A stretch of DNA of 63,460 nt, the filler included, from Cladosporium halotolerans (lineage: Eukaryota): NCBI RefSeq assembly GCF_011745625.1. It is 11 parts of 11 records of this genome, joined end to end, with 100 filler letters (N's around TTAATTAATTAA, not from the genome) between each part and the next. Parts side by side here need not be neighbours in the genome. Positions count along the whole stretch, not along the records: positions 6,136 to 12,166 come from NW_027191660.1; 10 more parts are not named here. One strand, 5' to 3'. The notes below the pieces were generated by a model. It had not been told where the DNA came from. It was given only the letters and a program-made list of their open reading frames with translations, and made no database searches. A program made the position numbers and the translations under genes. Below, one piece after another: positions 1-61,779 of this stretch (positions are counted from its first letter, which is position 1; every line of letters begins with the position of its first letter).

Positions 1-3000
1 AAGATCGACAGCTGTCGCGGCGTGTTCACCCCTTGCCCCTTTTGACATTTCTGGGGTTGAAAATACCTCGGTCAAGGACTGAATGCTAACGAACCTCTCG
101 CAGACTATCGACGTGATCGCGAAAGAGTTAATGTGCCACGACATTCGAGGTCGTATGCGCTGATTTTGAGGGTTGCTCAAGGCCAGAAGCGATGGCCCTT
201 TGCGACTGCAGGGTCTCCCTCTATTGTGGCCAATAACGCCGGCCGACCTCGCCGCTGCAGGGCTTCCGTAAGGATGCTGGTTGACCTTACGCAACCATCA
301 TGGCACACGCCTCTCCGGTGCGGATATTAGCAATGCCGTCCGCACGCCTGTCCGCATCGCCAGGAGGGCTTTGATCCGTGCCCGCGGGCGCGCTGTCCTT
401 GCTTCCTGGAGCCACATGTCGAAAGGTCAACGGTGCAGCCGAAGTGTTCGTGAGTTTCTTCTGCCATGTTTGCGCCACGCCTATGGACAAGCTCCGAGCA
501 GGAACGATTTTCTGTGCGCCCGTGTCGACAGGACGCTGAGTGGAAGTCCTCAGCGATTGCTGCATTACCTCGGAGCTGCTGACGGGGTTCACCCAAAGGC
601 TACTGTCCCAGCGTCACTATTTCGTGGTGGTAAAGGAATGGCAGGGGCCTGTGGTCGACGTGGCGACCTGTCAACTCCTTGTCAGACCTCCCAACCCCGC
701 CCCCGCCCCCGCCCCTCCTTTACAGAAGAAATTAGGTGACCAGATGGATCGCTCGCACGTGACGATGAGGACCTCAGCTGAAAGCTCGCCCGACGTCCGT
801 AGTAAGGATGACATGGCGGCCGGACACCGTAGCTGCATTGGCCCGTGCTCATGGACAAAGCCCTTGTCGGTCGAAGAGCCAAGCCATGGCCGGCGTCGGG
901 ATGCTGTCGTCCATGCGGAAACTTGTGACAAGGTAGGGAGGATCTCACATTCAAGCCACAACACGCGCATGTCGGAGCGAGCGGTACGATAGTGAAACCA
1001 GCATTTTTTTCAATAAAGTATCGTTATGGATCTTGGTTTCGAAACGACGTGTCAAGCTCCGCACCTGCCGCCGCCGAGTGGAAATCGGTCCGTGGATAAG
1101 AGGATCGCTGTCACCTCTGCAATGCGACAGGCCGCAAAACATGTCAGTCGGGGCATCCGGCGTCCATGGCCGTCAAGCGAAGCTGAGCGAAATTACCAGT
1201 AAAGCCGCGGTTTGGTATTGAGGAAAGCGTGCGTGGTGGCACGATCGGCTGTGTGGTGGCAAAGTTCGATGGCGCCGCCGTGCTTTCTGACCGGACGCCT
1301 TGTCGAAAGTACCGGCCCGATCACTGGCAGTTGATGATTTGTCAGGCCGTGACAGCCATTTTTCTTTTCCAACGCCGTTACCAGCAGGTCAGTGAATGGG
1401 CGCGCCGGTCTGCCGCTGCAAAAAGGCCCAGGCGTGTGTACAGATACCCCGGCGAACTACCAATCAAACCGCGGAACACGAGATCAGTCGAAGCGCCTTG
1501 AGGGAGTTGCCGGTTGTCGTGTAAGATCAGGGTCTTGACAAACGTACCGTCAACCTTGGTCGTCAGCTTCAACGTGGCGCAGAACGATATCCACAAGCAA
1601 CATCCACATGCAGGCGCCCGTCGAGCTTGCTTCGCGAAGCGCCGTTAACTTCGCCTAGACTCTGATCAAGATCCCATCGAGCAAACATCAGCTGCCTCGA
1701 CGGTCTCGGGTCCAGGCCAACCGGCGTTATGGGAACAAACACCAGCGAGACTTCTAGCAAGACGTCCAACGAAAGTGACAATGAGAACAGAAGGGGTGAC
1801 CACGTGCAGGTTCAAGATGGCTTCCCTCCAATTGCATAAAGATACAAAGCCACTGGTCTGCCTTGGGGACGGACATCCACAGGTGGCAAGTGGGTCGTCG
1901 AAATGATACTTTCCATAAGCCGCCAGGGCGCAAAACCAACCGAGACGACTATACCCTGGAGCCATGCATTTATTTGGACACGGTCGACGCTGGCAACTCC
2001 GCCAGCCCGCCGCGGGGCGATTTCAGATTCAGTGGGCAACTTCGGAGCTCTTCACGCTTCCCCAATCACATTCGCAGCATGCGCTACAATAGCGCTACAT
2101 CAGCACTCCGCCCTGGCCCAATGTTCCACTTTTGGCAATCATTCTCGCATCCTTCGCGTTGATCTGGGCCCGGTTAGCCGCGGCGAAACCTCCGAACATG
2201 TGCTTCCAACTCCAACGCATTGCTCCCGCTCAAGCAAGCGCCGCCCTCGTCAACGTGAAGCTCCCGGCCAGTCTGCCCCAAAAGCGGCGCGGCATTGGTG
2301 CATCGCTGGCATGACGACAGCAAGCCGGGCTGCGACAACCCTTCGAGCTCATGGGACCCGAGTCTGGCAGCCGACACGCGTTCTTGCTCGCAAGTGGTCG
2401 CCGCCCTGACCAGTAAATCTAGGGTAGCGCTGCCGCATTGCGAAGCTCCAGGGCGCTGGACATTGTAGCTTTCGCGCCGAGTCTGAACAAAGAAGTCGAT
2501 TCGCCGACCAGTGGTGAGATGGGCCGGAGCCTGCCGACAATGCACTCGGTGCGTCGCCAACGAGGCCAACGGCGTTGCCAAACAGCGATAGCCAGCTCCA
2601 CCTGCGAAAAGATCAAACGCTGCTCTTCCCAAAGACCGAGGACCTTTTCCAAGTGCCAAGCGGCCAGAGGCATCAAGATGGTGCTTCGCACGGGACACAG
2701 GGACCGCGTGTGCGGCAGGCTGAGGCATCCTCGGTGTAGACATCTTAATCTTCCCTCACCTGCCCTGGTCGTGGCACCGGCGCTGAAAGTGAAGCCGTCC
2801 GGAGACGACGCTCCGTCTAGGGGCGCCCGTTCGCCCCGTCGCCGGCGCATCGGCAGACTCGATGGGCTTCGGAGTGCCGTTCCAGCATCAAGCCCGACCG
2901 GATCCATGGTTGAGCGACCCTGCCAGCCAAAGGCCAAGAAGCGCCTGCGTGGTCGTGTTGCTACCCGACAGACGCGTCGACGACGGCGTGCGCTGCAAAC

Positions 3001-3294
3001 CTTGGTCTGGACAATCCCGATCGTGGCCAGTGAGATTAGCATCTGAGGTGTTCTGCCACGTGAGCCGCTCGACTTTGGACGCGAAGGTCAACAACGAAGG
3101 CGAGAGAGACAGGAAGTGGTATGAGAAGAAACATAATGTTGCCAGCGACACCAGAGGGTGTGCCGCCCGAGTCGTTCCATGTTGGAGTCGAAGTTCAACA
3201 GGGAAAAGGAAGAAACAGAAAGTGGGATGAGAGAAAAGAGAGATGTGGCCAGCGACACTCAAGGGTGCGTTCACATGGCTTGCTTGACTTAATG

Positions 3295-3560
3295 TCCTAG
3301 CCGCAGCGGTAGCGTCGCGCACGGACGCCCATCCGTTGTCTGGAGAAAACGGATCGGCGTCCGTGCGTACCAGTGGGGTGGGTGGTGGGGAACAGACGTT
3401 GTGGCTTGAGACTGTGTAGGCTGGGGACTGCGGAGGCTGGAGACTTCGGAGGCTGGCTTCGAAGCGCATGCCGGGCTATCCTAGCCGCTGCGATAGCGTC
3501 GCGCACGGATGCCCATCCGTTCTCTGGAGGAAACGGATCGGTATCCGTGCGCAGCAGCGC
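3295..3560. repeat. Tandemly duplicated ~80-bp unit, each copy holding a ~50-nt hairpin
   Basis: TCCTAGCCGC...CGCACGGAYGCC-CATCCGTT...AACGGATC-GGYRTCCGTGCG at 3295-3373 and again 184 bp downstream. Confidence 0.85.
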
Positions 3561-3566
3561 CCGGTC

Positions 3567-3990
3567 GCAGACCACTGCGCTGAGGCAGCTCAGTCAATCT
3601 CGACGAACGCTGAGGCAAGCGACATGTCGAAGACGGTCGCACGCCGCCGTCCGCAGGTTGATCTGGCTCATGTCAACGAAAACGTCGTTGGAACGGGAAC
3701 GGGAACGGAAGCGGAGTGCAGAGTCCAGAGCGAGTGGCGGCAGCCAGCAAGGGGACGCAGAACCGCACCTACTTCGTGCAGAGCAGTGGAATGATCGGAA
3801 GCTGGCGATGCGGCCAGACGCACCAGAGGGTAGATCTCAAGCGCTTGGCTCGCGATCCCGGCCGCTGTAGCGCTAGGTTGCAGACCACTGCGCCGATGCA
3901 ACTTGGTCACCCTTGACGAACGCCTTGGCAAGCGATATGTCGGAGACGGTCGCACGCCGCCGTCCGCGGATTGACGTGGATCGTGACAAC
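3567..3990. repeat. Diverged ~110-bp direct repeat
   Basis: GCAGACCACTGCGC...GACGAACGC...GGCAAGCGAYATGTCG.AGACGGTCGCACGCCGCCGTCCGC at ~3567-3677 and ~3880-3990. Confidence 0.75.
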
Positions 3991-6035: not shown

Positions 6036-6135
6036 NNNNNNNNNNNNNNNNNNNNNNNNNNNNNNNNNNNNNNNNNNNNTTAATTAATTAANNNNNNNNN
6101 NNNNNNNNNNNNNNNNNNNNNNNNNNNNNNNNNNN
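6036..6135. other. Artificial contig linker (N44-TTAATTAATTAA-N44). Identical linkers at 12167-12266, 18236-18335, 24245-24344, 30131-30230, 35793-35892, 41378-41477, 46938-47037, 52482-52581, 57999-58098
   Basis: Fixed 100-bp spacer with a stop-codon cassette. Intervening contigs shrink monotonically: 6031, 5969, 5909, 5786, 5562, 5485, 5460, 5444, 5417 bp. Confidence 0.98.
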
Positions 6136-7562
6136 CCATGTGATCAATCTCGTGGCCAAGGCGGTGCTTTACGGCACAGATAACGATGCAATCGATCAGG
6201 AAGAGCGCGAAGACTGCCTTTCGGACAGCCGCCAAGTAACCGCTTTCGAAGCAGTCATGCGGTCTGAGCCTTTAGAAGAGGCACTTCAGACGTGGCGTCG
6301 CAAAGGCCCTGTCGGGAAACTCCACAACCTAGTCACCCATATCCAAAAGACACCAAAACGTCGACGTTTCTTTGAGATGAAGCAAAACGTCGACGCCGAC
6401 GCCGACGACGGCCGCATCTATCGAGTGATTGTCGACGGCGGCATCAGGTGGAACAGTAGCTGCGACATGATCGAGCGCGCCATGAAGCTCCGGGACGCCC
6501 TTGAGCTGTACCAAACACACTTCCGATCACTGAGCGATTCTGATCGACTTTCCTCTTCAGACTGCCTTGATTCTGCCGACTGGTCGCAGCTGGAGCGACT
6601 GCTTGAGGTACTGTCACCCTTGAAGCATGCCTCTTTAAGGTTGCAAGCAGACAACGATGCGAAGCATGCATTGTGGGAACAGCTGGCGACCTTCGACAGC
6701 CTACTAGGGGAGTTTGAGCAGGTCAGGGAAAGGTACAGATACGAGCCAAGTAGTCACATCAAGGCATGTGTAAACCTCGGGTGGAAGAAGCTCGACAAGT
6801 ACTATGGGTTGTCGGACAAGACCTCCGCGTACAGGATGGCCATCTTCCTCCATCCTCACTTGAAGATGGCCTGGTTCGAAAGGCACTGGGGATGTCGGCC
6901 GGCATGGATCGATGCTGCGAAAGCAGCAATCGACGGCGCATACTCAGCCGCGAAGGCAAGGTGGCCGCTGGATGCCCAGAAGGCAGTCTTCCTCAGCCCA
7001 GTGGAACCCAGGGTCAAGTCCGAGTCGAGATTTGAAGACTACAACACCCTTCCTCAAGAGGTCGATTCGATGGATGACTTGCAGCTCTACAAGCGGGAAG
7101 AGCGGACTCCAGGGCTGTACTCGCCTTCACCACTGGAATGGTGGCGTCAAAATCATACCAGGTTTCCGCTCTTGCGACACCTAGCCTTTGAACTCTTCGC
7201 GATACCGGCTAGTGCATCAGCAAACGAACGAACCTTCTCCATTGCTGGCAACTCGGTGGGGAATGATAGGCCACGGACTCTGTATGAGCTCGCGGAGGCG
7301 CAGCAACTTCTGCGCAGCTGGTATGACGAGGACATAATCTGAAGTGTATAAACTCTTACCTACTGTACCATGTGAGCACATTCTCTCGTTATAAGCACAC
7401 TGCCTGCCCTTTCGTGCCAAGACTGGTAAACGTCTTGGCAGATGATGCAGACAGACAGACAAATCACTGCCATTTCTCAGACAGACAGACAAGCCACCGC
7501 TCCTTAGGTAAGCAGACCAGACATTCCCGGAAATCTTGTCTGTCTGTCTGATGAACACCCTG
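6136..7562 (+). mobile_element. hAT DNA transposon, right part, with subterminal (CAGA)n repeats and TIR
   Basis: Transposase ORF followed by CAGACAGAC repeats and the terminus GTCTGTCTGATGAACACCCTG (7542-7562), the reverse complement of the terminus at 41281. Confidence 0.92.
6140..7342 (+). CDS. hAT transposase, C-terminal part (5' end cut by contig edge)
   Basis: HVINL, GPVGKLHNLV, IRWNS, GWKKLDKYY, FLHP, and dimerisation domain PLEWW...FPLLRHLAFELFAIPASASANERTFS with catalytic Glu. Confidence 0.93.
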   Translation: MINLVAKAVLYGTDNDAIDQEEREDCLSDSRQVTAFEAVMRSEPLEEALQTWRRKGPVGKLHNLVTHIQKTPKRRRFFEMKQNVDADADDGRIYRVIVDGGIRWNSSCDMIERAMKLRDALELYQTHFRSLSDSDRLSSSDCLDSADWSQLERLLEVLSPLKHASLRLQADNDAKHALWEQLATFDSLLGEFEQVRERYRYEPSSHIKACVNLGWKKLDKYYGLSDKTSAYRMAIFLHPHLKMAWFERHWGCRPAWIDAAKAAIDGAYSAAKARWPLDAQKAVFLSPVEPRVKSESRFEDYNTLPQEVDSMDDLQLYKREERTPGLYSPSPLEWWRQNHTRFPLLRHLAFELFAIPASASANERTFSIAGNSVGNDRPRTLYELAEAQQLLRSWYDEDII

Positions 7563-10347
7563 ATCTCTGGGAATTTTAGCGAGCTCGGATATGTCTTCAA
7601 CTTTGGAGATGATGTTTCAACATTGTTGCAGGCTGAGACGCTTATGATGAACTTGCAAAGGCGTTTTTTGTTGAAGATCGACAGCGCCACATTCGCCACC
7701 CACTGCTGTATATAGGTTAGGCATGCTCCCACTTGATAGATCACCAATCAACATTCTTTGAACGTACCAAATCTCAACATTTTTATCTGGAAGGAATTAT
7801 TGCATATTGACAGGTCAAGCATATAGTGATTCGATGTTGTATATCAGTCTCGATGGGGCACTTGAAGTCGTCCACGTTGGAATTGGCATTGTTCTGCGAG
7901 CGGACTTACTTATAACATCAAACTTGATAATGGCCTGATATGAAATAAATCATTTCGCGACCAACAGATTCAACGCATGCGTCCAGACAATTTCGATGAC
8001 GCTTGCAGCATCACACTGCACGAAAGCCGATGTGGCTGAGAGAACACTCAAGATGGAAGCTGACTGGGGCTTGTTGCCGGGGAAATTCCTGTATTCAACC
8101 CCAGTCATGGCGTTTAGCGTAGATATCAATCAATTACTTGTCTCACCATTGTTTTCATATTGACAGCTGGTTTTGAGCGTGCAATAACATTCCAATGGTC
8201 ACAGTCACTTGTCAAAATCTAGGCAGATTTGACCAACTTTAGACCAAATACTCCACTCGAACAATACAAGCACTTCAACTCGCCTACTCTAACCCTTAGG
8301 ATTAATTTGCACCTAAATACAGACACTTCGACTCGAAGTTTCTGTCTTCGAATAGAAGCACTGTTTCAAATATTTGTCGATAGCGTTGTCGCTCCTTTGA
8401 CTGATCACATGTTTCAGCCATCTGTCTGTGGACACATACATCCCGTGCTTCTCAGGAACGTCGACAAACTCCCTTATTTGACCTCCGGAAACAAACTGGA
8501 ACTAACTCCACCATATTTGAGCCCATTCCCCTTTTGACTCCTCGAGAACGTCGGAAAGGTAAGCTCCCCCATGGCGGAGTCGTAAGGTCCGCGTATCTCG
8601 GTGAGGCCGTTGCTGCGCGGCTGGGCGCAAATTGTGCCTGATGAATCCACGTACATGATTACGATCTTCTATCAGGACGCTAGTGCTGTTCTCACTTTGG
8701 AATGGACGAGTGGAGAAAACACTGCGGGCGGAGCATCTGAGACCTTCCTTTATGCGTCATTACCGTAAGAAAGCTCCCCGTAGAAGTCTTGCAGACTATC
8801 GTTAATGCGGGCGGTGTGAGATAACGCTGGAGCGGATGCGGCAGAGATGGCGCTAGGTCGAGAAATTGGTTTTCCGAGATCTTGCCATCTCGCCGTCTCG
8901 AAGTTTTTCCTACCTCGAACACGGAAATACCTCAGCGTTTGATGCAATCTCGACGCAATCAAAAAGTGACTCGTCAATCATTGGATGTCATGTCCAAAAC
9001 AAGACTGGTTCGATTGGTCAAAAATGTGATGGAACATGTTGAGGATGATATGCTATGATCAGTTCTCATTCGAATGATTAAGATATGACTGTAATCTGAA
9101 ATGAAGTCCGATATGGAAAGCAAATTTTGCGCCGCATTTGATCGTATCATGTGTGGTCTTGCTGCCTCTAGCATGGATCTTATTCCGCCAACTTTCTCCC
9201 AAAGAAACACCACGGGAAGCCAACTAATCACTGGCCTGACTCAACTGAGGTCTTTGGGCCCTCATTCGTGCGCCTTCAGCGATGGAGCATACCAGACGCA
9301 TCTCTGTCGACATTACTTTGGTAGGGATTGATTCTATCGACTCCTCCCTGCCATAGCCAGCGACATTGCCACCTGGCTGAGCTCCGGTCTGCTACATGAC
9401 ACATTGGTGGGCCTCCATACGCTGCACGATTGCCATAATTGTATCTCTAAATTCCGATCGGCTACATCACCCTTGGATAGCCCTGATTTGCGGAAACATG
9501 GGTGAATGATCCAGCTCTGCCCGCGTCTGCAGCGATGACGGTGGCCCCATTGGAGGGGGGGGGGGGGGGGGGGAAGGGGGCATTGCCGGAAAAGGGTCGT
9601 CGATTTCCGCAATGCCTGGATCGTTGGGGATGGTAGGTATTGAGCGGGACAGGGCACGGCGTGATCGCACCGTACTGGCCCGGTTTGGTGCCATAGTTCA
9701 TGGTACAAGTGTTGCCGAAGTCCGGGCCAGAACTAGCGGTGAACGCGCCTGGGCTAATACCAATTGGCGGCTGGTCGATAACGTTCCGGGAGAAAGTGGC
9801 CGGGTTGACAGCGGACATCCAAAGGCGGGCCTGCGAAGACCTACTACACGCGTCCACGCCGCCGCAGGTGGAAACAGCTCGCAAGCACGAGCTGGCTAAG
9901 TGTAGGGGCAATGAGAGATGGCCGCCGTCGCCGCCTGGCCGCCGCGACCGGTCGCGAAGTCCCAGGGGCAGGAGTACTACACGCCGCCCTGTGACTGCTC
10001 CATTACGCTACTCCCTTCGTCAAGAATGGAATCTCTCATTAAAGAAGGCCAAGAGGATACTGGATACGAAAACCATCCGACGCGCTCCTGCTCTGCAATC
10101 GCGCGCAGAACCTGCGCTGTAGCGTTCTACTCGCTGCAGCAATGTGGAAGCCCCAGGAGCGCGACAGGACACCTCTGAGCTTGAACTACTCTGGGAGCAC
10201 GCCGGATCAGCGAGAAAGACGTGACGAGGGGAACTGCAAGCCGATTTTTAGGGAACCTGTTAAGAGCTAACTGCGAATAAGCATAGAGACCTTGTTAAGC
10301 CGCCCGCCGCGCACCCGCTCTACAGAACTGTTAAGCCCTCTTCTCGC

Positions 10348-11033
10348 GCCTCTGTTAAGGCCTCCCTGATACGACTACCGTACTCTGGCACGACTACCAC
10401 TTGCGGACGAGGAAGGGGAGGGGTCACAGTCCAGCGCAGAGAAGAGTGTCACAGTCCACTGTAGGGAGGGCAGAGCGGAGGAGCACACAGGCCAGCTGTA
10501 TACGAAGCGTAGAGAGTGTCACAGGCCAGTCCTAGGAAAAGGTGGACACAAGCTAGGTTAGTAGGGGATAGGTGCATGGGCTGCCCGGCGAGGAGTCTAC
10601 AGGACCACCCCTGCAAGACACGGTCGGCCTACCGTGGGGAGACCCTCGTAGGCAACGCGAAACGGATGTCGCAAGGCATTCGCGGGGCGTAGTGCGTAGC
10701 AGCCACTGCTGGCTCCGAGGACCTCACCCCTTCGATGGGCTCTGACCCTCGGTGTACCTGAGAGCAGGCGGGATCAAACCCCGGCCGGAGAGACTGCTAC
10801 GTGGGTCGAGAGAACGGATGCGCGTGTCGGTACACAAACAGACAGGACCGTTCGTCAGGATGGAACGCTGGTGATGTGTGCTTAAGGAGCAAACAACGAG
10901 TTACTTGGGCTGGGAGGGGTTTTGCCTGGGCCTCAACTAGTGGAAGCCTACACGGAATTGGCTGAAAACCAAGGCAGGGCCCAGTAGACAATGGGGCACG
11001 CCGCACCTGTTTAGATATACAAGAATCCAATAA
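10348..11033 (+). repeat. ~690-bp conserved non-coding element, copy 1 (putative structured RNA or retroposed module)
   Basis: Colinear homology to the reverse complement of 61102-61776, including the identical block CCAAGGCAGGGCCCAGTAGACAATGGGGCACG. Ends ...AGAATCCAATAA. Confidence 0.9.
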
Positions 11034-11039
11034 CTGTTG

Positions 11040-12166
11040 CGAGAGGTTCTGGCTGCCAGGTGAGGGCGGCATCTGTATGCACTGCTGTGGGCCTGACCAC
11101 TTTGGCAAATGCACCGAACCAGCCAAATGCTTCGTCTGCGCGGGCGACCATGAAGGAGTCAAGCACCGATGTTCCGCAACGGGATGTGGGAAGAAATCAG
11201 GAACATGCGATCACGAAGTAGCAAGGTGCGCGAACTGTGGAGGCCAGCATATGGCCACCTCTCGTCGATGCCCCGAAAGGATGCAGCGAGCCCGAAAGCA
11301 CAAGGAGAAGCCTAGCACCGGGATACGGAGCAGTCCCCCCACGACTTTGGAAGACCAGATACCGATTGCAGGGCAGGAAGCTGATGTAGAGCACATGGAC
11401 GAGGATGTAGCTACACCCCAGGAGGGAGAATTTGCCGCCACTCAACCGCCAGCAGTGACACTGAGATCGGAAGGGATGCGGTCGAGCCCATCGTGGTCTG
11501 ACTCAACGTCGAACTCAGACATCGACAATGAACCGTCAACCCCGACTCCAAGAGGTAAAGGACAGACTCCGATGTCAGTTGATGATGATAGTGCTGCAAC
11601 ATAATTGTAACGGCACGTTGGTGCCAATGATGGCGGCTCTCGAGGCCGCCCTCGAGCGAAAAGCCGAAGTGGTGTGCTTGCAAGAGCCCTACGTCGCAAG
11701 AAAGAACGACGTCAGCCATCCAGGCTTTCAGATCAGATGGCCAGAATGTGAAAAGGGGGAGACGAGAGTCGCGCTGGCCATCAGGAACGATGTGCTGGAT
11801 CGGTACGTGTTTGAGGAAAGGACGGACCTGGTCAGCAGCCCGTATGTGCAATGCTTGGATGTATGGGAGACCCAGCGGCGGAGAAAGGTACGCCGTACGA
11901 GACTGATCAACATATACAACCGGGCGAGGATGGCAGGTGGCGGCTACGCAATCGATCGCGTGGACTTGGCGCAGCTGATTGATGGACGAGTCATCCTCGC
12001 CGGAGACTTCAACGCACGTAGCCCGGCTTGGGATCCGTGGGCGGCGAGGCGATGCAACGCCGGCACCACAGAAAAGCTCATCGAGGACCACGGACTGATC
12101 GTCAACAACAACGACCAGCCAACGAGATATGGCAAGAATTGTCGGTCGATCATCGACCTGACGTTG
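11040..12166 (+). mobile_element. 5'-truncated Tad1-clade LINE: ORF1 zinc knuckles plus ORF2 AP-endonuclease (cut by contig end)
   Basis: ERFW..GEGGICMHCCGPDH, CFVCAGDH, CANCGGQH; ORF2 MIVLQHNCN...CLQEPY...ILAGDFNA...SIIDLTL. Same family as 52677-56990. Confidence 0.93.
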
Positions 12167-14056
12167 NNNNNNNNNNNNNNNNNNNNNNNNNNNNNNNNNN
12201 NNNNNNNNNNTTAATTAATTAANNNNNNNNNNNNNNNNNNNNNNNNNNNNNNNNNNNNNNNNNNNNCGCGCAATTCCCATCACCTCGGTCGATGCAACGT
12301 CAGGGATCAAGGTCCGCAAGGTAGGGTCAAGCGATGGCATCGCGGCCTGCTGCTTCCTCGCCAAACCGACGCTCCAAAGACAGGTCTACTATTGCCGAAA
12401 GTCGAGCCGCGGCCGTACTCCTTCCACAGGGCCGGAAGCGCCCGATGTCAAGGGTGGAAACGGAAGGCAACCTTGTCAGGCCTCTTGCAGACTCCCTTGG
12501 AACAGTTGGCCTCGGGCTCTCCGATTTGGTCAGGTGGCCTGGTGCGGCCGAGGACGCACGTCTAAACCCTCGAAGCCCGCTTGGAGTTCAAATGCGATCT
12601 TATCGCTGACTAACAGACTGACTGGCTCACGTCCCTGGCGGAAGCATGACTCACGCCGCATTGGCGCAGACGGCCCGAAAGCTTCATAACTAGCAACGCC
12701 GCCTCCATTTGGCGAGACTTGGTTTAATGCAATATGGTCAGACTCACCTATCTCAGCAACTTCACAAGGAAACCGGAGCGCCGCTCGTCGCAGTGCATGT
12801 TGCGCGAGATGGATCGCCGTCTGTCGGGCGCAGCGGTTCGAACGAGCAAAGGAAGGTCGATCGAACTGTTAGGAAAAGAGCGGTATTGCAATACCGCACG
12901 GGGTACCGAGTCTTCTGATGATTCGCCGAACCAAGCGCCGATGTCGAGAAGGCTGACCTGACTCAATTTGGCCATGGGATCGTCTCGATCGGGCACCGGA
13001 GCGAGGCCAGGGCCGGCACAGCTTTTCGGCAGGGTCGATCCACACGGCCCTTCCTCACCCAGAGTCTCGGCTTGAGTCCCCGTCCGCAGCATGTCCACCA
13101 TGGCAGAAGAAGCAAGCCGGAGGAGATTGGATGCTAACCAATTCCGTCGATCAACCACGTCGGACAGTACTTCAAGTCTATCATGGCATGGGAGAAGCGG
13201 CACTATCACCCCATAGAGCCTCTTCCAACGTCCCTGTCGACGGTGGTCCTACGTTCTGAAGCGGTTCGTTGACATGTGGTGAACAAAGATAAGCTTCGTC
13301 ACTATGCCAGGGCTCATGATCGCCTTGCGATGAAGGCTCAGCAAGTGATTGAGTGCAGTGCGGTCAGGCCGGCCGCGGTTTTGTGGGGTTACAAAGACCG
13401 TCATTGGCTTGACGTACAACGGCACGGGGGGAATCCTTGCCGAACACTAATTGACGGCCTCAGGTTCTAGCGTCTTGGTAGAAGGCCCGGCAAGCATTTG
13501 GCAAGCTATGTCAGACAAGGTTCGATCGGGCTGTTGGTAAGTTATCCGGATCGAAATCCAAACAAAAGGTATGATATCCCATGCCCGGGATGGCGTGGTC
13601 TTGGTGGGATCTCTGGAAGCACACTTTGATGGTGTGTTGGGATCAGACAGACTGGACGAATCTTGTTCAACAGCTGTAGTCGAGCCATTGGGCTTCCCTG
13701 CCCTGGATACCAGCCTCGCTGTGCCGGCGGAAAATTCTTGTCCCGCTCCTGCTTGTGTTCAGGTGATGGACGTCCTCGGAAGCATGGAGACATGCACGCT
13801 GTCGAGCGGGTGCAGTACAGCGAGACCACTGCCTTTCCCCGGTGCCAAAGAGCCAGGCTTGTCAGATACGAGCGAAGGTTTGCGCCCAAAGTCAAGGGTA
13901 AAGGCAACGCGATAGTGATCTTAACAAAAGCATGTTGTGTGCTCTCGTGCCGCGCTGGGAGAAGCGACTCATTTTGCGTGCTGTCTCCAGTGACACATAT
14001 AACAGAGCTCGTAGCCCCAGCTCCTGCGCGACTTATACCTTTCACAACACTTCATC

Positions 14057-17000
14057 ATGTCTTGCGACGTACTTTTATCCGACATTATCAAAGACCGAGC
14101 AAGCCGCGACCCCGACGCTCCATTTGCCAAAGTGCCGAGAGGTAATGCCTACCGCAACGGATATCGCGTCGTCACCAACTCGGCCCTCGTCGCCGCGGTT
14201 GATCATGTCGCCGACCTCATCGAGACGACTTTTGGGCGTGGCTGTAATTTCGAGCGTGTTGCTTACCTGGGTCTCAATGATTTGAGGTACACGATCGTGC
14301 TACTTGCATGCATCGACACTGGCCACACCGTATTTTTTCCGAGTCCTCGCAACAGCGACGAAGCTCACAAGGCTCTGCTCGAGAGCCTGGGCTTCTCTAA
14401 GCTGATCTCTACATTTCCAGGGCCAGCCGGGGCGGAGGCTGTGGAGAGGGCAATATCGACGAAGCTTATCATTCCGACGCTTGACGAACTCTTGGACGTC
14501 ACGCCAACACGAAGTCCCGAGAAAGCCCGTCGACGGACTTTTGCCGAAGCCAGGACGGATCCCATATTCATCTTGCACACTTCGGGCTCGACCGGTATCC
14601 CGAAGGCTTTGACGTACACCACCGAATTCGTTTCTCGGGTCTACCATGCGCAAAGCCTCGTTCCGACCGACGGATTCGAAAGTGTGAATCAAACCTATCA
14701 GCAAGGTGCCTGCATCGTCACGCTGCCGCCGTTTCACATTGCCGGCTTAGCCTTCACGGTCCTCGTTCCTGCGTACTACGGCAGCATTCCGATATACCCG
14801 ATCGCCGGCACACCGCCTGGTCTCGGAGTGTTCCTCGGGGCTTTGAGCGCCACAGAGGCCGACTGGGCCTTTGTCTCACCCGTGCTTGTCAACCAGATCG
14901 GTAGGGCTCCAGAAATCCTGAGCAGAGTGGCGAGCAAACTGGACCGCCTGTTCTACACAGGGGGCTCAGTGCCTAGTGACTCAGGGACAGCGGTCGCGCG
15001 GAAAATGGGAGTGGACCAAGTCCTCGGCAGCAGCGAGTGTGCTGCCTTTCCTCTCCAGCGAGCAAAGGGTCCGAGACACGAAGAGGATTGGCAACATGTT
15101 CATGTTCATTCTGCGGCCAAAGTCGAATTTCGCCGCGACAACGCAGACTGCTACGAGATGGTACAAGTGCGGAGGCTGGATGAGGCCGCCGGAGGAGCAG
15201 GTCAGAGATACCAGCCCGTCTTCTGCCACTTTGGCGACGTGAAGTCTTACCCTACGAAAGATCTTTTCGTGAAGCATGCTTCTCTACCGAACACCTTTAC
15301 CCACATGGGCAGGACTGACGACATCATCGTCTTTCTCAACGGAGAAAAGACGAACCCGACAAGCTTCGAGAACCAGATGGCTGAGCACCCGCATGTGCAG
15401 GCTGCGCTGGTCGTCGGACAAGAGCGCCAAGAAGCAGCGCTTCTCGTCGAGCCGACGGACGCACAGCCGCTCTCGAACATTGCCAAGAAAGAGTTGATCG
15501 ATACCATCTGGCCGACGGTGGAGAAGTGCAACAAACTCTGCCTGCGACACGCGAAAGTGTCCAAGACCAAGATACTCGTCGTGCCTTCGGCAAAGTCGTT
15601 CATCAGGGTCGGCAAAGGCACGGTGCAGCGTCGTCGCACCGTGGAACTTTTCAAAGATGCCATCGATGGCTTGTACGAAGAAGGCGAGGGTGCAGTAGGT
15701 AGAAGCCACCCTCTCACATCCAACGCTCCCAATATGGCGTTGACGCATGAGGACGCTGCTGTCGTCGTCAGGCGGGCATTGGCCGATGTTGGGTACGAGG
15801 CTCAGTCGCCGTCGACGGACTTCTTCCAGAACGGCATGGACTCTTTGCAAGCGATCCAGTTCGGACGAGCTTTGAGATCGAATTTGCCTCAGGTGTCAGT
15901 GGAAGCGGGCACGATCTACGACAACCCTACCGTCGACTCATTGGCGTTCGCACTTTCGCGGGCGACTCTCGAAGAAAGCCGTTCCGTTGTCGGGATGGTA
16001 GATGTGGAGGAGACCTTGCACGTCTACCAGTCGAAGATAGACGCGCTCTTTGAGCCGAGTGGCTTGATGCTGAAGCCGCCAGAGGAAGCGGAGGAAAGCA
16101 CATCGACGCTGGTGTCGGAGGGGGCGATCCTTCTGACGGGTTCGACTGGAGCGCTGGGTTCGCATTTGCTCAACACCCTGCTGGAGCGGGGAACGCAGAT
16201 GGTGTACTGCCTGAACCGGTCCAAGGATTCCAGGAACGTTCAGATCGAGAGCAACAGGAAGAGAGGCTTACCGCTTGCGTTTTCCGAAGACCGTGTGAAG
16301 TTCTTTACGGCGGATCTTGCCCTACCACAGCTTGGACCGCGGCACACTGACTTCGCAGAGCTCCAACGATCTGTGACGCGCATCATCCACAATGCCTGGT
16401 CTGTGGACTTCAACAAGTCCCTGCAGTCGTTCGCCGATTGCCTTGATGGCGTCGTCGGACTCGTCGGCTTCGCAGCCGCCAGCCCCCGTCCCGTGACCGT
16501 CCAATTTGTGTCTTCCATCGCGTCTGCCAGAGGGACTGGTCAAGATCAGATCGTACCCGAAGCAGTCCTCGACAGCACACGCGGGCCGGCGTCGACTGGG
16601 TACGGACAATCAAAGGACGTGGCCGAGAAGATGTTGGCGCGTGCCTCGAAAGTCCTCGGCATCAGGAGCATGTCAGTACGGGTCGGTCAGGTCTCTGGGG
16701 ATGCTCTACGGAAAAGAGGCTGGAACCGCCAAGAGTGGCTTCCCAGTCTGGTCGTCAGCTCCCTCCACCTAGGCGTTCTGCCGGAAAGCCTTGGATGTGC
16801 CGAGGACGGGAATGAGGTGCGATGGATACCGGTGGACTCTGCCGCCAGGATTCTGCATGACATGTCGGGGAAAACCATAGCCACCGGCGGCAATGAAACC
16901 CTGAACGTGGTGCACCCGAAGCCGACGCCGTGGGCAGAGCTGCTACCGGCGGTTCAGACTGTACTCGACAAAGTGGAAAGCGAACGTGGAGGCAAGCCGC

Positions 17001-17266
17001 TAGAGATCGTCACCTACGGCGAATGGTGCCAGAAGTTGAAAGCTACTTCTGAAATGGAGACGCTCGACAGCCAGACCATGTCTGCGAACCCTGCTGTCAA
17101 GCTTCTTCCTTTCTTCGAGAGCTTGCTTTCTGAGAAGCCTATGTTCGGTGCGTTCGCAATTGATAGAGCTATGGCTAGCAGCGAGTTTATGCGGGCGCTG
17201 GAGCCTTTGCCGAGTGACTGTCTACAGGCCTGGGCCACCAAATGGATTGAGGGCAAGGATTCCTAG
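14057..17266 (+). CDS. NRPS-like A-T-R enzyme (carboxylic acid reductase type), 1069 aa
   Basis: A domain FILHTSGSTGIPK, PPFHIAG, TKDLF, GRTDDIIVFLNGEK, GKGTVQRR; T domain FFQNGMDSL; R domain LLTGSTGALG, IIHNAW, YGQSK. Confidence 0.93.
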   Translation: MSCDVLLSDIIKDRASRDPDAPFAKVPRGNAYRNGYRVVTNSALVAAVDHVADLIETTFGRGCNFERVAYLGLNDLRYTIVLLACIDTGHTVFFPSPRNSDEAHKALLESLGFSKLISTFPGPAGAEAVERAISTKLIIPTLDELLDVTPTRSPEKARRRTFAEARTDPIFILHTSGSTGIPKALTYTTEFVSRVYHAQSLVPTDGFESVNQTYQQGACIVTLPPFHIAGLAFTVLVPAYYGSIPIYPIAGTPPGLGVFLGALSATEADWAFVSPVLVNQIGRAPEILSRVASKLDRLFYTGGSVPSDSGTAVARKMGVDQVLGSSECAAFPLQRAKGPRHEEDWQHVHVHSAAKVEFRRDNADCYEMVQVRRLDEAAGGAGQRYQPVFCHFGDVKSYPTKDLFVKHASLPNTFTHMGRTDDIIVFLNGEKTNPTSFENQMAEHPHVQAALVVGQERQEAALLVEPTDAQPLSNIAKKELIDTIWPTVEKCNKLCLRHAKVSKTKILVVPSAKSFIRVGKGTVQRRRTVELFKDAIDGLYEEGEGAVGRSHPLTSNAPNMALTHEDAAVVVRRALADVGYEAQSPSTDFFQNGMDSLQAIQFGRALRSNLPQVSVEAGTIYDNPTVDSLAFALSRATLEESRSVVGMVDVEETLHVYQSKIDALFEPSGLMLKPPEEAEESTSTLVSEGAILLTGSTGALGSHLLNTLLERGTQMVYCLNRSKDSRNVQIESNRKRGLPLAFSEDRVKFFTADLALPQLGPRHTDFAELQRSVTRIIHNAWSVDFNKSLQSFADCLDGVVGLVGFAAASPRPVTVQFVSSIASARGTGQDQIVPEAVLDSTRGPASTGYGQSKDVAEKMLARASKVLGIRSMSVRVGQVSGDALRKRGWNRQEWLPSLVVSSLHLGVLPESLGCAEDGNEVRWIPVDSAARILHDMSGKTIATGGNETLNVVHPKPTPWAELLPAVQTVLDKVESERGGKPLEIVTYGEWCQKLKATSEMETLDSQTMSANPAVKLLPFFESLLSEKPMFGAFAIDRAMASSEFMRALEPLPSDCLQAWATKWIEGKDS

Positions 17267-24344: not shown

Positions 24345-24442
24345 GTCGATGTGAAGTAAGCAATCAATCAATCTGAAAAATCCTTGGCAATCAATCAAGT
24401 CAGGGCCCTGAAACTTGAATTGATTGATTATGCACACCTCTG
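24345..24442 (-). mobile_element. Same TIR terminus, second insertion
   Basis: Reverse complement of 24149-24244 with a different flank. Confidence 0.85.
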
Positions 24443-25844: not shown

Positions 25845-27663
25845 TTCGGTTTGAAACAGGAGGCGAAAAAATGGCTCGGCTTCTGGCTGGATTCGAAGCT
25901 GTCGTTCAAGACGCACTTCGAAAACAGGATGGCAAGCGCCGAAGGAGCACTACAGCGGGTATCCAGTCTCAGTAGAAGCAATGGCGGCTTGTCCATCAAT
26001 CTGATGCGGGAAGTGGTCGTGGCCGCAGTCACCTCCGTGGCATTGTACGGGTCGGAGATCTGGTGGAGAGGTCAGAAAGACCGATTGGAAAAAGCGCAGC
26101 TGTTGCTGAACAGACAGGCGAGGACCAGAACAGGGCTGTTGAGATCAACCCCTCGAAACTCCCTTCGGGCGGCATCGTGCCTACCCACCGCCCAAGGTCT
26201 GCTTGACCACCGTCAGACCAGGTTTGCAATACGGGCGCTCAACGCGAACGGAGACCACCCAACGCACCAGCTCCTGCCCGCCAACTTCCGTTTCGGCGAG
26301 CTTCACCGACACGAAGGAGCGACTGGTCAACTGTCAAGCATCGGATGGATAAGACCGGAAAAGACGCACCGATCGTTCGGAAGCAGACTTGCACAGCAGA
26401 TAGTGAGGCACGTCAGCTACGACACCGAGTATGGGTTCGAGCTGCCTCGCAAGGTGGACTGGCCTGCAGCAAGCCCAGTGATCCGGACTCAAAGCTACTC
26501 AGAGACGCCGCAAAGAATGCAGCCCGACAATCCGCAACAACTAACACCGTTCGTGAGCACAGCCAAGGATGTAAGCTTTGGCCTAGGGGTCGCATGGAAA
26601 GAACAGTATGCATGGACGACCAAAATGTCATCGCTGGGCAAATACGCCACGACAGTCGATGCTGCGTTCTTCGCCGTGGGCATGGGTGTGAAGAATCTCA
26701 TCTCGATACTGTCAAAGACAGATCACTGCCGCGCCGAGATGGCTACGGAGTCGCGGGCTGCACTGACCGCCATCCAGAGCAGCAAGCAATGGATCCTACC
26801 GATAATCACCGGTATCAAAAGACACGCACACGGCGTCGAGACGCAGGAGGCCGATATGGTCTTGACATGGCTTGCGGATGGCGGAGACTTAGAGGGCTAC
26901 AAGACAGCGAAAGCTGCGACACAAAGAGCAGCCAAGCAACAGCCAAAAGAAATGCGATCAGCCTCCCTGTCGTTCGTCAAACAAGCGGTCAAGGAGAGGT
27001 GGAAGACAAGAGCTAAGATCAACAAACATCTCGAAGACGCGAAGAAATCTGTTGCAGCTCGCTACTTGCAGCTCAAGTCTGGCCATGCGGTTACAGGTGC
27101 CCACCTGCTGAGGATCGGTAAGGCCCAGGATGCACAATGCTGGTGGCGTGGCGGGAACAGGCTAACCGTCGCTCACCTCTTGCTGGAGTGCCGAAAATGG
27201 CGAAGGCAGCGGGACTCTATGCTACGGAAGCTGCGAGCGAGAAAGATCGAGATCAGCGGAAGGCGAGGTCGGGCAGACCTGAAGGCTCTGTTCGGAGATG
27301 AACCCATTGCAGAAGTCCTTCAATTTATTGACAATACTGAAGTGGGCAAGAAGTTAGCTCAGGAAGCAAACAAGGATGATTCGTGGGACATCGAACGGCT
27401 GGATTGCAGGATGGAGGATGGGGAGGAGATGTTGGAGGACTTGAGCGGGTAAAGTGAGAGGAGGAGCGCGAAGACGACAGGAACGTAGGAGGGCGCAAAG
27501 CCCAAAAGCTGTGGCGGCTTGATAAAGTTGGGACGGCGAGCATGAGTGTACTGTTGATTCACAAAGAGAAAGCACATGTAGAAGCCACAGAGACCGTCGT
27601 GGATAGCCGACGTGCCATAAGCTATATAGCTTGAATGCAGTATGATTCAAAAAAAAGGAAAAA
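25845..27663 (+). mobile_element. 5'-truncated Tad1-clade LINE (RT C-terminus, RNase H-like domain, knuckle, 3' UTR, A-rich tail)
   Basis: KWLGFWLDSKLSF, ALYGSEIWW, YLQLKSGHA, TVAHLLLEC. Ends AGCTTGAATGCAGTATGATTCAAAAAAAAGGAAAAA. Confidence 0.93.
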
Positions 27664-30325: not shown

Positions 30326-33300
30326 TGCCGGTACCCTCCGCTCTCGCAACCGATCCGCTAGCACCGAGGAGTGCACGCCGTTGAACGCGCCTTGCAAGTC
30401 AGACGATACCAGGGACAGGACTCTGTAGGCTCGCCACGCTTCGTGTATCTTCTCCACCAGGAGATTGAGCGCCTGTTCCGCCGACCTGTTTGGCCGCCCG
30501 CCAAAGTGGTTTTCCGGCAGCAGTCTGTAGGTCTCGGCCAGGTAAGACAGTCTTCTTGCAACTACCGCCTTGAGTCCTTTGCTGATCGTTTCCAGCAGCG
30601 ATATGGGCCGGTACGCCTTCGGCTTCGAGTAGTCGGGCTTGTTCGGCTTGCGGAGCACGACGATCTTGGCCGTACGCCAACGTTGTGGCACGTATTTCAG
30701 GTCGAGTGAGGCTTGGTACAGCTTCGGGACCCAACTTCCCAACACCGGCCAGAGCTATTTCCACACACGGAATGTGATCTCATCCAGACCAGGGGCCTTG
30801 TCGGACTTGGACTGCATGATCGCAGCCTCGACTTCCCCAAGTGTCAACTTTGGAAGCTTGATCCGTAACGGAATTTTTTTGCCGGCATGCTCGCACGGTC
30901 TGCTGCCACTTCTTGTGACCAGCCTTGGTTTTATCGAAGCGCTGTCACGGCTCACTGGTTGCGGCGGCACGGGAAAGGAAGAGTTGAGGAGGAGGCTGCC
31001 CTGTCATCCGTTACCTCTGTGGTCCCCATCTTCAACACGGGTATGCCGTGGCTTGCGCGGCTAGCCTTCGTGTATATGTAGGCTTTCCAGATGTTCTCGC
31101 GTTTGTCCAAGATCTCCGTCCAGTGCTCTCTTTTGCATTGCTCGATCTTCTCCATGTATAGGCGTCGGACCAGTTTGACCCTAGCAGCGGCTTCTGCGAC
31201 ATCCTCACCCCTTCGTCTGACCGTGGTCAGTCGGTCCCGTGCTGCGCTCAACGAAAACCGCAGCGTCTTCAGCTTGTCTGTCCACCACCGCTTAGCATAA
31301 GGCGACGGTCGAGCCCGTGCGACATGCTCTTCCAAGACCCCGTTGACCGCCGCCTCCAACCTGTCCACGACCACGTCCAGCTCATCCTTAAAAGATGGTG
31401 CACGTAGATTAAAGTCGCCTACGATCCTTGTCGACACTTCCTCGCGTATCTTCTTCCAGTCTGCTTTGTCGTACATGCGCTTTCGTCGTTTCTCCTCATA
31501 CTCTGTCGTGTCCACCACAAAGTGAGCCCGAATGGCTTTGTGATCAGACCCGTAGTCAGTCGGGTGCCTTCCGCAGTACCCACACGCCTCGCTCAAACCA
31601 TTACTTGCCAAGAAGAGGTCTGTCGTGGAACAAGTAGACCCGTTGTAGTGCTCCCAGGTCACCGTGCTCGACGGAAGCAGTGAACTGACTGCGTTCTCCT
31701 GCATGAAGTCCATGATAGGCTCGGCCTCTTCAGTGTGACCAGCCTCTCCACGAGCCTGAGCACCGCCCCACAGTACGTGGTGGCGGTTGAAGTCAGCACA
31801 TAGCAGCAGGTTGACTCGAGTTCCCATTCCATTGCTTAGGTTGAGGGCTTTCACCCTATCGTATGCATCCTTGACAGTATGCAAATTGGCTCGGAGTTGT
31901 TCTTCGCTTGCCGCCCGGCCGCCAATGGACTTCACATCTCAGGCAGAAACTATGAGTGGGGCGCCGTGCTTCGTTGGGATCGTCGCCGCCACCACATCGC
32001 TGGAGGGTACAGCGATCTGTTGCGCAGCGTGTTTCTTGTTCACCCACACAGATGCCCGGTAAGCATACCGCGCCTCTCCTTCCTCTTTGTCACTCGGCTT
32101 GAATAACTGCCAGTTCCGCTCGAGTGGAAAAGCCGGCTCGCCAGTATCAATGTCTTCGTAGATGTACGGTTCAACCACCAAGAGAGCGTCAAAGTCTGCC
32201 AAACTCTCGTCGCAGAACAAACTCCAGTGCGCCGTCTTTCGCTTGCCAAGGTTCACGTGTAGCACTTTGAACTGCCCTAGCATGAGAAATTGCTAGATGT
32301 GTTCGACGTGCTCGCCCTGCTCGCGACCTGTGCCCCACCACTTACACTCGATGTGACAGTCGGGCTTCTTTGCGTGCTATCGTCCGCGTCAACGTCCATG
32401 GCGGCACTGCGTTGGTCCTGCCTCGGCCCAGCCTTTTGTTGTCCGACGTGGCGGTAGTGCTGCGGGTGTAGCTTGCACGCCCGGTCGAACACGGTGTGAG
32501 CATCGCCGCACGCCGGGCACTTCGGGCTGTCTTTGTTTGGACAGTCATCCCGACGGTGACCTTTCGAGCAGATAGCACATCTGATATAGCTGGTGCACGA
32601 TGCCTGCTTGTGTCCGTACCTGTTGCAGTGGTAGCAAGGACGACTGTTGTCCCTAACGATAAAAGGTGAGCAGAACGCATCGGTCGCGCCGAACATAGCT
32701 GCGCCTGTCCACAGCAGGTAGTCTGCGTCGACTCTATTCTTCAGCCAGACCACCATCGATCCTACCTTCTTCTTCGCGTCGACTTTGCTGAGCCAGGTGT
32801 CCTTCATCACCGTGCACTCCGCCGTCTCGCAGCTGTTGTCCGCCTTGAAGTCCTTCGCAAAGTCCTTGTTCAGCGTCTTACCGTCATTCACATCCTGGTC
32901 TAGCACACACTGCTTCACGACACTGTCGAACTTGGCCGGATACCACTGCTCACCTTTGACGCGCGCGCCAGCCAGGCTCGACGTCAGCCAGCGAGTGTGC
33001 TGCTTGGCCTTGTTGGCTTCGTCGTTGCCCGCAAACACTACGTCGATCCTGTCGCCTGGGCCAGGTCGGAGAGACTTGATTGTCAATCTTTCAGTGACCT
33101 TGTTGACCTTGAGTCCAGCGCGTAGGCCGTCCCTGATGGCATTGTAATTGTTCTTCGATCCCCTAAACCTGCCCATATCTATAGACACAGCTCTGTCGTC
33201 CTGCACCTGGGGCTTTTCCTTGCGCAATTGTGAGCTGGCTGCAGACGTGGACCTGGCCTGAGAACTCTGCAGACCCACAGACGTGCCACTGTTTGCAGTG

Positions 33301-34787: not shown

Positions 34788-35693
34788 TCAATACTGAGAT
34801 AGAGTTCGATTTGCGAATCAGCAGTAATCTTGACCAATGCGGTGACATTGATGTGCTATCATTCGAAATGGACCCAACGCCGGACGGAGAGCGCACATAT
34901 CCATGTCCGGTGTGAGTAACTTAGCTGCACATGCAGCGGCGAAATCAGGGCGCGCTACAGAACAGCCAGGAATACGATGAGCCATACGGTAGTCTCGCAC
35001 AAAGCCATCGCTTGACGACGCCGTTTCCACCGACGAGCCCCGACATGGCCGCCTACCCCAGCGTCCAGCAGTCGAGAAAGCTCTGATACCATACGGCAAA
35101 GCCTGTGCACGCCGCACGCCAGCAGGCAACACGGCCCCACCGCCGCAGACGCAGCCTCCACCGCCGATTCGGCATCGAAGATGAGAAAGAGTCGGAAACA
35201 CACGCGTGAGACGCACAAGAACGCGACGAGCTTCCCAGCTCTACCTGAAAGATCCATACACCGAGCTCATGATTGGGGTGTCACATCTGATAAACACCCA
35301 TTACGGACGACCTACGCGCTCGGCCAGGCGGATACAGCACGACAAGCACGGCAGATGTTACTTGTCAGTACATGGCCGCGGATAACTCCGTACACCAGCT
35401 CACACGCGACACGGAAAGAGGCAGACATCAAGGAACACAACCCCAAGAGGTGCAGCAGCTTAGTCAAGCAACTTCACGGCATAAGAAGCGAGCCCATTCG
35501 GCTACGGGTACCTTCTCAAGGTCGGTTTTCGTGCCGGAAGCTCACATAGAGCACCGTGAGGATGATCACAACGCTGGCTCCTTCGCCAACGCGTAAGATG
35601 TGAGCCGAGTGCTTCCGTAACTAGGGCTTCCGCATTCCTGCGGCGGGTAGAACGCTACAGTGCGGGCTGTGCGCGCAACTGCTGAGTGGGAGC

Positions 35694-35792
35694 CAGAGGT
35701 GTGCATAATCAATCAATTCAAGTTTCAGGGCCCTGACTTGATTGATTGCCAAGGATTTTTCAGATTGATTGATTGCTTACTTCACATCGACC
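35694..35792 (+). mobile_element. Same hAT-like TIR terminus as 24149, third insertion
   Basis: Matches 24149-24244. Confidence 0.85.
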
Positions 35793-38456: not shown

Positions 38457-38626
38457 CAAAATTGGAATGTGTAGTCATGTATGGATATGACCAGGAGCGC
38501 AACATAGCTGCTTGCGTACTTCCCCACGACATCGTCCTTTTCCTCAAATCTATCTCTACCTTGCTTGTAAACTGTAGCCTCAAGCTCTCTTCGACATCCT
38601 GCCGACTAGGGCTATCGGATCACAGC

Positions 38627-57998: not shown

Positions 57999-58104
57999 NN
58001 NNNNNNNNNNNNNNNNNNNNNNNNNNNNNNNNNNNNNNNNNNTTAATTAATTAANNNNNNNNNNNNNNNNNNNNNNNNNNNNNNNNNNNNNNNNNNNNGC
58101 CGGA

Positions 58105-61776: not shown

Positions 61777-61779
61777 TCG

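Follow-up and report, generated by a model that had tools for sequence, protein, structure and literature searches.

The closest described system to the element reported here is MINE, a chimeric retroelement of Magnaporthe grisea/oryzae in which a non-coding RNA, WEIRD, is fused to the LINE MGL (Gogvadze et al. 2007, PMC2104539; MINE also goes back to Fudal et al. 2005, as cited in that study). A MINE consists of the full-length, 1113-nt WEIRD sequence and MGL truncated at one of 28 different sites; WEIRD is non-coding and well expressed, MINE is transcribed, and there is no solo WEIRD copy (PMC2104539). The formation of MINEs has been ascribed to template switching by the LINE reverse transcriptase, with a GCC*A/U motif reported at the MGL switch site, and target-site duplications were shown for 19 MINEs (PMC2104539). 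For WEIRD/MINE, the study names accessions EF585235-EF585237. Full-text literature searches for WEIRD/MINE and for fungal chimeric retroelements returned such chimeras only in this Magnaporthe study (PMC2104539); one later Magnaporthe paper uses the terms MINE and WEIRD. For the second comparable system, chimeras of U6 snRNA and L1, excerpts of a preprint consider both a template switch and RNA ligation before retrotransposition (bioRxiv 10.1101/2025.02.02.635956, citing Moldovan 2019).

We analysed a 63,460-nt stretch of DNA from Cladosporium halotolerans (hereafter the window), which consists of 11 contigs of 5.4-6 kb each with N spacers between them. Each spacer joint has the form 44 N, 12 bases, 44 N (6036-6135, 12167-12266 and eight more within 18236-58098). 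Several contig ends carry identical overlaps of 96-166 nt, resembling those of an assembly graph; for example, 52316-52481 equals 47038-47203, and 35694-35791 is the reverse complement of 24345-24442. Two copies of a non-coding repeat, here called X, lie on separate contigs of the window. We read them as MINE-like chimeric retro-copies, and X as a WEIRD-like RNA.

Results

Copies of X share the ends of a 1212-nt unit

A first-pass annotation of the window had described two diverged copies of a 680-nt element on separate contigs. Both copies and their divergence are confirmed: A (10348-11040, plus strand) and B (61776-61095, minus strand) align over 665 columns with 82.7% identity, differing by 83 transitions and 33 transversions. 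The size given for the element does not hold, as X is 1212 nt long and starts at 9829 rather than 10348; nor is its end the proposed AATAA, since the 3′ end of X, at 11039/11040, lies seven bases beyond it. The features of X in the window are as follows.

6136 to 12166: contig of copy A (copy on the plus strand)
9829 to 11040, plus strand: X, full-length copy A (blastn against loci L001, L004, L005 and L007; nhmmer model positions 1-1212)
10348 to 11033, plus strand: the stretch annotated earlier, the 3′ 57% of X and no unit by itself
10257 to 10359, plus strand: second internal motif of X, CTGTTAAG, four occurrences (repeat search, sequence reading)
10418 to 10529, plus strand: internal direct repeats of X, GTCACAG(T/G)CCA, 3-4 copies with 25-70 nt spacing (repeat families D1-D5 and D7)
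58099 to 63460: contig of copy B (copy on the minus strand)
61095 to 61776, minus strand: copy B of X, 5′-truncated, X positions ~515/520-1212, 682 nt
35620 to 35696, minus strand: isolated 77-nt X-like piece (blastn, 81% identity; nhmmer, E=7e-13)

These limits come from nine copies, namely A and B plus seven outside loci (L001-L007) found in one 24-mer scan of metagenome contigs. The organism behind the outside loci is unverified, and several strains or species may be mixed among them. The 24-mer was taken from the 3′ part of X, so the outside loci can include only copies that retain this part. L005 and L007 have both flanks in common and are 99.9% identical; we treat them as one locus, which leaves eight independent copies.

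In blastn comparisons with L001, L004, L005 and L007, X in copy A starts at 9829 and ends at 11039/11040. The first base (GCCTGCGAAG..) is common to A, L001, L004 and L005/L007, that is, to all four copies that are neither cut nor truncated, and the upstream flanks of the full-length copies are mutually unrelated. The last bases, ..AATAACTGTTG, are the same in 8/8 independent copies, with one extra C in five of them. Copy A departs from the family consensus at 27 of 1212 positions (2.2%). Copy B, which is older, does so at 103 of 670 (15.4%), compared with 1.7-4.9% for the other copies. Among the seven close copies, 137 variable columns are singletons and 44 are shared; such mostly private variation is what would be expected of independent retro-copies of one source.

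The 77-nt piece is similar to X positions 253-329 (10081-10157, plus strand) and lies in an unrelated context at a contig end. The same positions form the only part of X with a clearly low folding z-score. The piece could be a motif that X has in common with other sequence, or it could hint at where X came from.

The surroundings of the copies differ. Copy A is preceded by AT-rich DNA and by part of a hAT transposase:

6137 to 7339, plus strand: hAT transposase tail with the C-terminal dimerisation domain (Pfam, E=4e-15), 2.5 kb upstream of copy A; ORF cut by the contig start

A run of ~24 G lies at 9553-9576, 250 nt upstream of the X start, and GC content jumps there from about 0.45 to about 0.62. 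Directly upstream of copy B, 61800-62200 (minus strand) contains a frame that by eye resembles a C2H2 zinc-finger protein and is broken by stops, which suggests that copy B lies in or next to a decayed host gene and not in a LINE. X chimeras seem to be located in repeat-rich DNA. At L004, a LINE of a second family (P0005-like) occupies oriented positions 718-3378, about 0.5 kb upstream of the X-LINE chimera, and a telomere-repeat-like motif, TTAGGGTTAGGGG, is found upstream of X in L005 (oriented 3795-3810) and likewise in L007. A repeat rich in CAATCAATCAATC..GAAACTTGAATTGATTGATTATGCACACCTCTG occurs at contig ends of the window (35700-35792, minus strand; 24345-24442) and within the sequence interrupting the L005 LINE part (oriented 7150-7290), and possibly marks where a different mobile element ends. 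Elsewhere in the window, 14015-17266 (plus strand) holds an open frame of 1083 aa, by eye an adenylate-forming enzyme with carrier and reductase domains (NRPS-like).

X has no coding capacity and does not fit the common repeat classes

Consistent with the earlier annotation, X has no recognisable protein product: an ATG-initiated ORF of at least 60 aa occurs in copy A only, and in 0/8 of the other copies. With no conserved ORF, we conclude that X is non-coding. Equally, no Rfam match at gathering thresholds was found anywhere in the window, in agreement with the earlier annotation, which had assigned the element to no known family. A search over 9300-11100 at E up to 1 gave only two chance-level matches, both upstream of X, and no Rfam 15 covariance model of a known structured RNA or self-cleaving ribozyme matches X.

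Three other kinds of sequence were considered and rejected. For a DNA transposon, a test for terminal inverted repeats located the reverse complement of the X tail only at the two X tails themselves. For an LTR or solo LTR, the ends are not TG..CA, and copy B is 5′-truncated. An rDNA spacer or ETS came into question from the abundance of X in small sequencing runs; contigs leave the X end into differing sequences that are not rRNA-like, and the flanks of X differ between copies.

The idea that X is a SINE fares no better. No tRNA, 5S or 7SL head, or other Pol III-type head, was detected with Rfam, and nucleotide self-BLAST of the window gives no X-to-LINE match that would indicate a shared 3′ tail; the LINE tail, ..GCTTGAATGCAGTATGA(A)n, is unlike that of X, ..AATAACTGTTG.

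X sequence in public sequencing runs

We looked up the 31-mers of a 690-nt query (window 10348-11037) in public sequencing runs. At least half of the query 31-mers were present in 14 of the 24 runs listed, and near-identical X sequence was found in runs from leaf, air, food, wine, litter and tick samples. Six runs from four studies are on record as RNA and hold 36-45% of the query 31-mers; in the two of these that were compared, contigs are 95-99% identical to X. These contigs of RNA-labelled libraries, in which the ends of the RNA are not visible, suggest that X is transcribed.

Four public runs were followed over 10000-11400. Coverage extends from the start of this interval (about 10060 in run X15) to 11039-11044 and then stops, and the sequences beyond differ between runs, in keeping with the 3′ limit of X. 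The interval 11081-11400 is uncovered in the RNA runs and in the DNA run X1 alike, and the uncovered part is therefore no evidence. One RNA-library contig joins 11039 back to 10502, placing the 3′ end of X directly before a 5′-truncated X, which fits the process that would form the chimeras described below. Neither of the two 30-nt loose ends behind 11044 (runs X2 and X1) could be placed on a LINE; by eye, one shares only four residues (AVAE) with the contig-10 LINE ORF2, too weak a likeness to be used. A joint of 10186 to 10870 in X15 was disregarded, as one of its sides comprises just 24 letters. In run X18, an RNA-library contig passes into Illumina adapter at 11019, 20 nt short of the end of X, a position at which fragments may often end.

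Both window copies run straight into 5′-truncated LINE sequence

The annotation had suggested that X might be the long 3′ UTR of a LINE, with long copies continuing upstream into ORF2. The arrangement is the reverse, and had been overlooked: the LINE lies downstream of X, and both window copies run straight into 5′-truncated LINE sequence. The LINE features of the window are as follows.

52667 to 56978, minus strand: near full-length LINE on contig 10, the reference for junction mapping (ORFs; Pfam RVT_1 and Exo_endo_phos)
11041 to 12166, plus strand: 5′-truncated LINE after copy A, from about ORF1 residue 399 into the endonuclease domain; cut by the contig end
60119 to 61094, minus strand: degenerate C-terminal part of ORF2 of a second LINE family, directly at the 3′ end of copy B
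25845 to 27662 and 35895 to 38461, plus strand: further LINE copies
30341 to 31383 and 44141 to 44764, minus strand: further LINE copies

The contig-10 LINE has an ORF1 of 590 aa with zinc knuckles and an ORF2 with endonuclease and reverse transcriptase. About 1 kb upstream of its ORF1 showed no likeness to X by window self-BLAST or nhmmer. Two of the further copies display the family 3′ end, ..GCTTGAATGCAGTATGA followed by an A-rich tail, and two are distant reverse transcriptase fragments, 26-36% identical to the contig-10 ORF2.

Behind copy A, tblastn places ORF1 aa 399-518 of the contig-10 LINE on 11038-11388 and ORF2 aa 49-259 on 11537-12166, and Pfam Exo_endo_phos and Exo_endo_phos_2 match 11465-12166. 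Behind copy B, the 812-aa reverse transcriptase P0005 is collinear from the X end onward (tblastn, aa 477-812), with 64% identity to its residues 481-581 by BLASTP; the RVT_1 domain of P0005 spans 203-432. The copy B flank has no BLASTP match to the ORF2 of the contig-7 LINE, and pieces of this flank have no Pfam match. Among named proteins, the best matches to the flanking LINE come from Hortaea and Friedmanniomyces.

The same architecture recurs outside the window. In 7/8 independent copies, the base after the X end belongs to LINE sequence in the same orientation, at seven different points of the LINE, and the 5′-truncated LINE is joined to X directly, with neither poly(A) nor filler at the junction. 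Mapped on LINE homologues that are 70-78% identical and are not the parent LINEs, the junctions fall at the following points.

L004: about aa 191 of LINE ORF1
A: about aa 399 of ORF1 (zinc-knuckle region), followed by the endonuclease domain
L005/L007: about aa 678 of LINE ORF2
B: about 50 aa past the reverse transcriptase domain, in the second LINE family
L001: C-terminal region of LINE ORF2; weak match (E=5e-4)
L006: just before the C-terminal Cys motif, with alignment to two LINE copies from the first base of the flank
L002: only the final ~300 nt of the LINE, then an A-rich tail

In the eighth copy, L003, no LINE follows X. Directly adjoining X there is an ORF in antisense orientation, whose match to carboxylesterase is weak (E=0.024) and falls short of the Pfam cut-off. 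X is joined to LINEs of at least two families, which argues that X is not one family's own leader.

We looked at the junctions and at the outer ends of the chimeras for traces of the joining and integration steps. At the four junctions that can be mapped on an intact LINE homologue, AG precedes the junction in none, and the GCC*A/U motif of MGL switch sites is not apparent. After the A-rich tail of L002, the one LINE tail visible, the terminal bases of X are neither repeated nor continued. A search for target-site duplications found no exact repeat of at least 8 nt. The contigs do not span a whole chimera, except perhaps in the case of copy B, for which none appeared even with one mismatch allowed. 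X and the LINE piece would have integrated as one unit.

X would have been acquired as an RNA during LINE reverse transcription

The earlier proposal that a non-coding sequence is being copied via RNA by retroelement machinery is supported by the discrete ends of X and its direct, same-orientation fusions to LINEs. We consider it probable that X is a discrete 1.2-kb non-coding transcript of which cDNA is made and integrated by LINE reverse transcription, most likely by a template jump. The LINE would start target-primed reverse transcription on its own RNA and copy a variable length of the LINE 3′ part, and copying would then continue from the exact 3′ end of the X RNA. This second template would be reached by a jump of the reverse transcriptase, which we favour, or would already have been ligated to a LINE RNA fragment. 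The copy would usually reach the X 5′ end, giving the full 1212 nt, and sometimes stop early, as in the 682 nt of copy B. The product would be a chimeric retro-copy of the form 5′-X-(5′-truncated LINE)-3′. Presumably, X RNA exists in free form with a defined 3′ end that is not adenylated, and X may contribute a promoter, which would keep some chimeras transcribed.

The same chimeras could also arise by joining at the RNA level, with X RNA ligated (RtcB-type, through a 2′,3′-cyclic phosphate end) or trans-spliced to LINE RNA and the product then reverse-transcribed. The architecture is identical to that of the U6/L1 chimeras as presented in the preprint excerpts (bioRxiv 10.1101/2025.02.02.635956), and an exact X 3′ end with no filler bases fits ligation as well as it fits a template jump. 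The lack of AG at all four mappable junctions speaks against trans-splicing, while our analysis offers no counter-evidence to ligation; template switching and RNA ligation are indistinguishable from DNA sequence. Overall, we regard joining at the RNA level as unlikely, and keep the template jump as the working explanation.

That X is instead the 5′ leader (a 5′ UTR or promoter exon) of a LINE family, with the junctions being internal deletions or splice products, appears very unlikely. Spliced LINE copies are known in mammals, X is always 5′ of the LINE and in the same orientation, and its short internal repeats are reminiscent of some LINE promoters. However, the X side of the junctions is constant to within 1 nt whereas the LINE side takes seven positions, and random deletions would vary both. 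The involvement of two LINE families, the lack of X likeness in the ~1 kb upstream of the contig-10 ORF1, the lack of an AG acceptor at the mapped junctions and the one copy without a LINE (L003) all count against a leader.

We find it highly improbable that X is an independent dispersed repeat and that a site-specific LINE inserts exactly at its 3′ end, as R2 does in 28S rDNA. A constant upstream flank combined with variable LINE 5′ truncation is also the signature of such an element. However, the sequence past the A-rich tail in L002 does not resume X, two LINE families would need one common specificity, and LINE copies elsewhere in the window terminate in ordinary flanks that lack X. Moreover, the LINEs carry an AP-type endonuclease (Pfam Exo_endo_phos), and LINEs with such enzymes are as a rule not strictly site-specific. 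Acquisition of X RNA during LINE reverse transcription remains our preferred account.

Substitutions among the copies do not track a conserved fold

The first-pass annotation had described a fold under selection, with substitutions that preserve pairing. The details that it quoted are present in copies A and B: a GAGA versus a GAAA loop, GTC-GCAA-GGC versus GCC-GCAA-GGC, and GAGG..CCTC versus GAGA..TCTC. Across the nine copies, the interpretation as pair-preserving change fails, as the covariation term of RNAalifold is +6.86 kcal/mol, which is a penalty. Only one of 277 predicted pairs is compensated on both sides; shuffled controls have a mean of 0.4 compensated pairs and equal or exceed the observed count in 179 of 500 trials, and control structures with slid partners have 1-4. 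Going from A to B, the substitutions keep 168 of 207 predicted A pairs, compared with 167.3 +/- 3.9 for random placement (P=0.49), and the reverse test from B to A gives P=0.45. Compensated pairs number 0 and 1 in the two directions, as against about 2.8 expected.

The GAGG/CCTC to GAGA/TCTC exchange, put forward as a true compensatory change, is uncompensated in 4/9 copies: GAGA faces CCTC in L005 and L007, and TGAG is present in L001 and L004. The hairpin with the GCAA loop has a GNRA loop in all copies (GCAA, GCGA, GTGA or GTAA). As every change in the loop is a transition at one of its two free positions, GNRA is kept by definition. Its stem has one covarying position (A-U, G-C or G-U), with mismatches in three copies. 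The invariant block noted near the 3′ end is present, as a 37-nt run identical between A and B, but it is only nominally unusual (P about 0.018, from a null that scatters clustered gap columns and is thus too strict, so that the true P is larger). Invariance of this block in the outside loci is partly forced, since they were found with a 24-mer from within it.

Nor is there excess stability that would point to selection on the fold. The minimum free energy of copy A is -266 kcal/mol, compared with -260 +/- 7.5 for dinucleotide shuffles (z = -0.82; copy B, z = +0.57), and 22 sliding 150-nt windows of the consensus have a mean z of -0.06. The one outlier (z=-2.84) lies at 10029-10178, outside the stretch annotated earlier.

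Dispersed retro-copies decay neutrally, without selection, and covariation among them is therefore a poor test; its absence says little on the fold of the source RNA. For the DNA copies themselves, the structured-RNA reading is largely refuted. A structured RNA or ribozyme of ~680 nt whose fold is under selection, a SINE or a long LINE 3′ UTR is scarcely credible as an account of X, given that, against the GNRA-type loops, the single hairpin with one position varying as A-U/G-C/G-U and the one low-z window, covariation is not in excess, substitutions fall as if random with respect to pairing, free energy is like that of shuffled sequence, Rfam yields nothing for X with E allowed up to 1, the unit measures 1212 nt instead of 680 nt, and the flanks upstream of X are unrelated with no reverse transcriptase match continuous with X.

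Discussion

X has discrete ends and no coding capacity, and it is fused directly, in the same orientation, to LINEs at many positions. The tempting reading of a large covarying RNA, possibly a ribozyme, gives way to a documented mechanism. This is a second fungal case in which one ~1.2-kb non-coding RNA is the preferred partner in LINE-made chimeras, and its host is a different, apparently ubiquitous fungus. X-LINE is a new system for two questions: why the RNA of X is chosen, and whether joining occurs by template jump or by RNA ligation. For annotation, the X-LINE chimera should be masked as a single composite repeat.

It is conceivable, and we suggest it tentatively, that X and WEIRD belong to a wider, unrecognised class of fungal RNAs picked up at the 3′ end by LINE reverse transcriptase, or that X is an abundant functional non-coding RNA of the nucleus. 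If such a class exists, its members would be RNAs without a LINE-like tail that bring a promoter-bearing 5′ module, and they would spread by turning dead, 5′-truncated LINE copies into transcribed chimeras. If X is instead a nuclear non-coding RNA, a special 3′ end (non-adenylated, possibly with a cyclic phosphate) would make it the preferred partner, and its presence in leaf, litter, wine and tick RNA libraries would reflect a highly expressed RNA of a ubiquitous fungus.

Comparison with known systems sets X apart from SINEs and other non-autonomous, LINE-dependent retroposons such as Mg-SINE. Like them, X lacks coding capacity, relies on LINE enzymes and can be truncated at its 5′ end (copy B), but most X copies physically carry a piece of LINE. 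The mammalian U6 snRNA/L1 chimeras (also U3, 5S, 7SL and Alu with L1) are closer, combining, in the excerpted account, a full-length RNA with an exact 3′ end and a sense, 5′-truncated LINE. X is ten times longer than U6 and has no known RNA family match, and its copies make up a sizeable separate family instead of rare pseudogenes.

The closest likeness is to MINE, and it is one of architecture. X-LINE differs from MINE in its host, in the use of two LINE families, in the one copy of eight without a LINE, where MINE has none, and in the GCC*A/U motif, not evident at the four mapped junctions. Both elements have a full-length non-coding 5′ part of ~1.1-1.2 kb with fixed ends, which in X are constant in 4/4 copies at the start and 8/8 at the end. 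Both join this part directly, and in the same orientation, to a LINE truncated at many sites, as seen in 7/8 X copies (with the weak match at L001, E=5e-4, included). Both have few or no stand-alone copies and occur in a filamentous ascomycete. The 5′ part of MINE is transcribed, and the RNA-labelled libraries suggest transcription for X. We conclude that X-LINE represents a type of chimeric retroelement already described, and that X is no novel ribozyme-like RNA.
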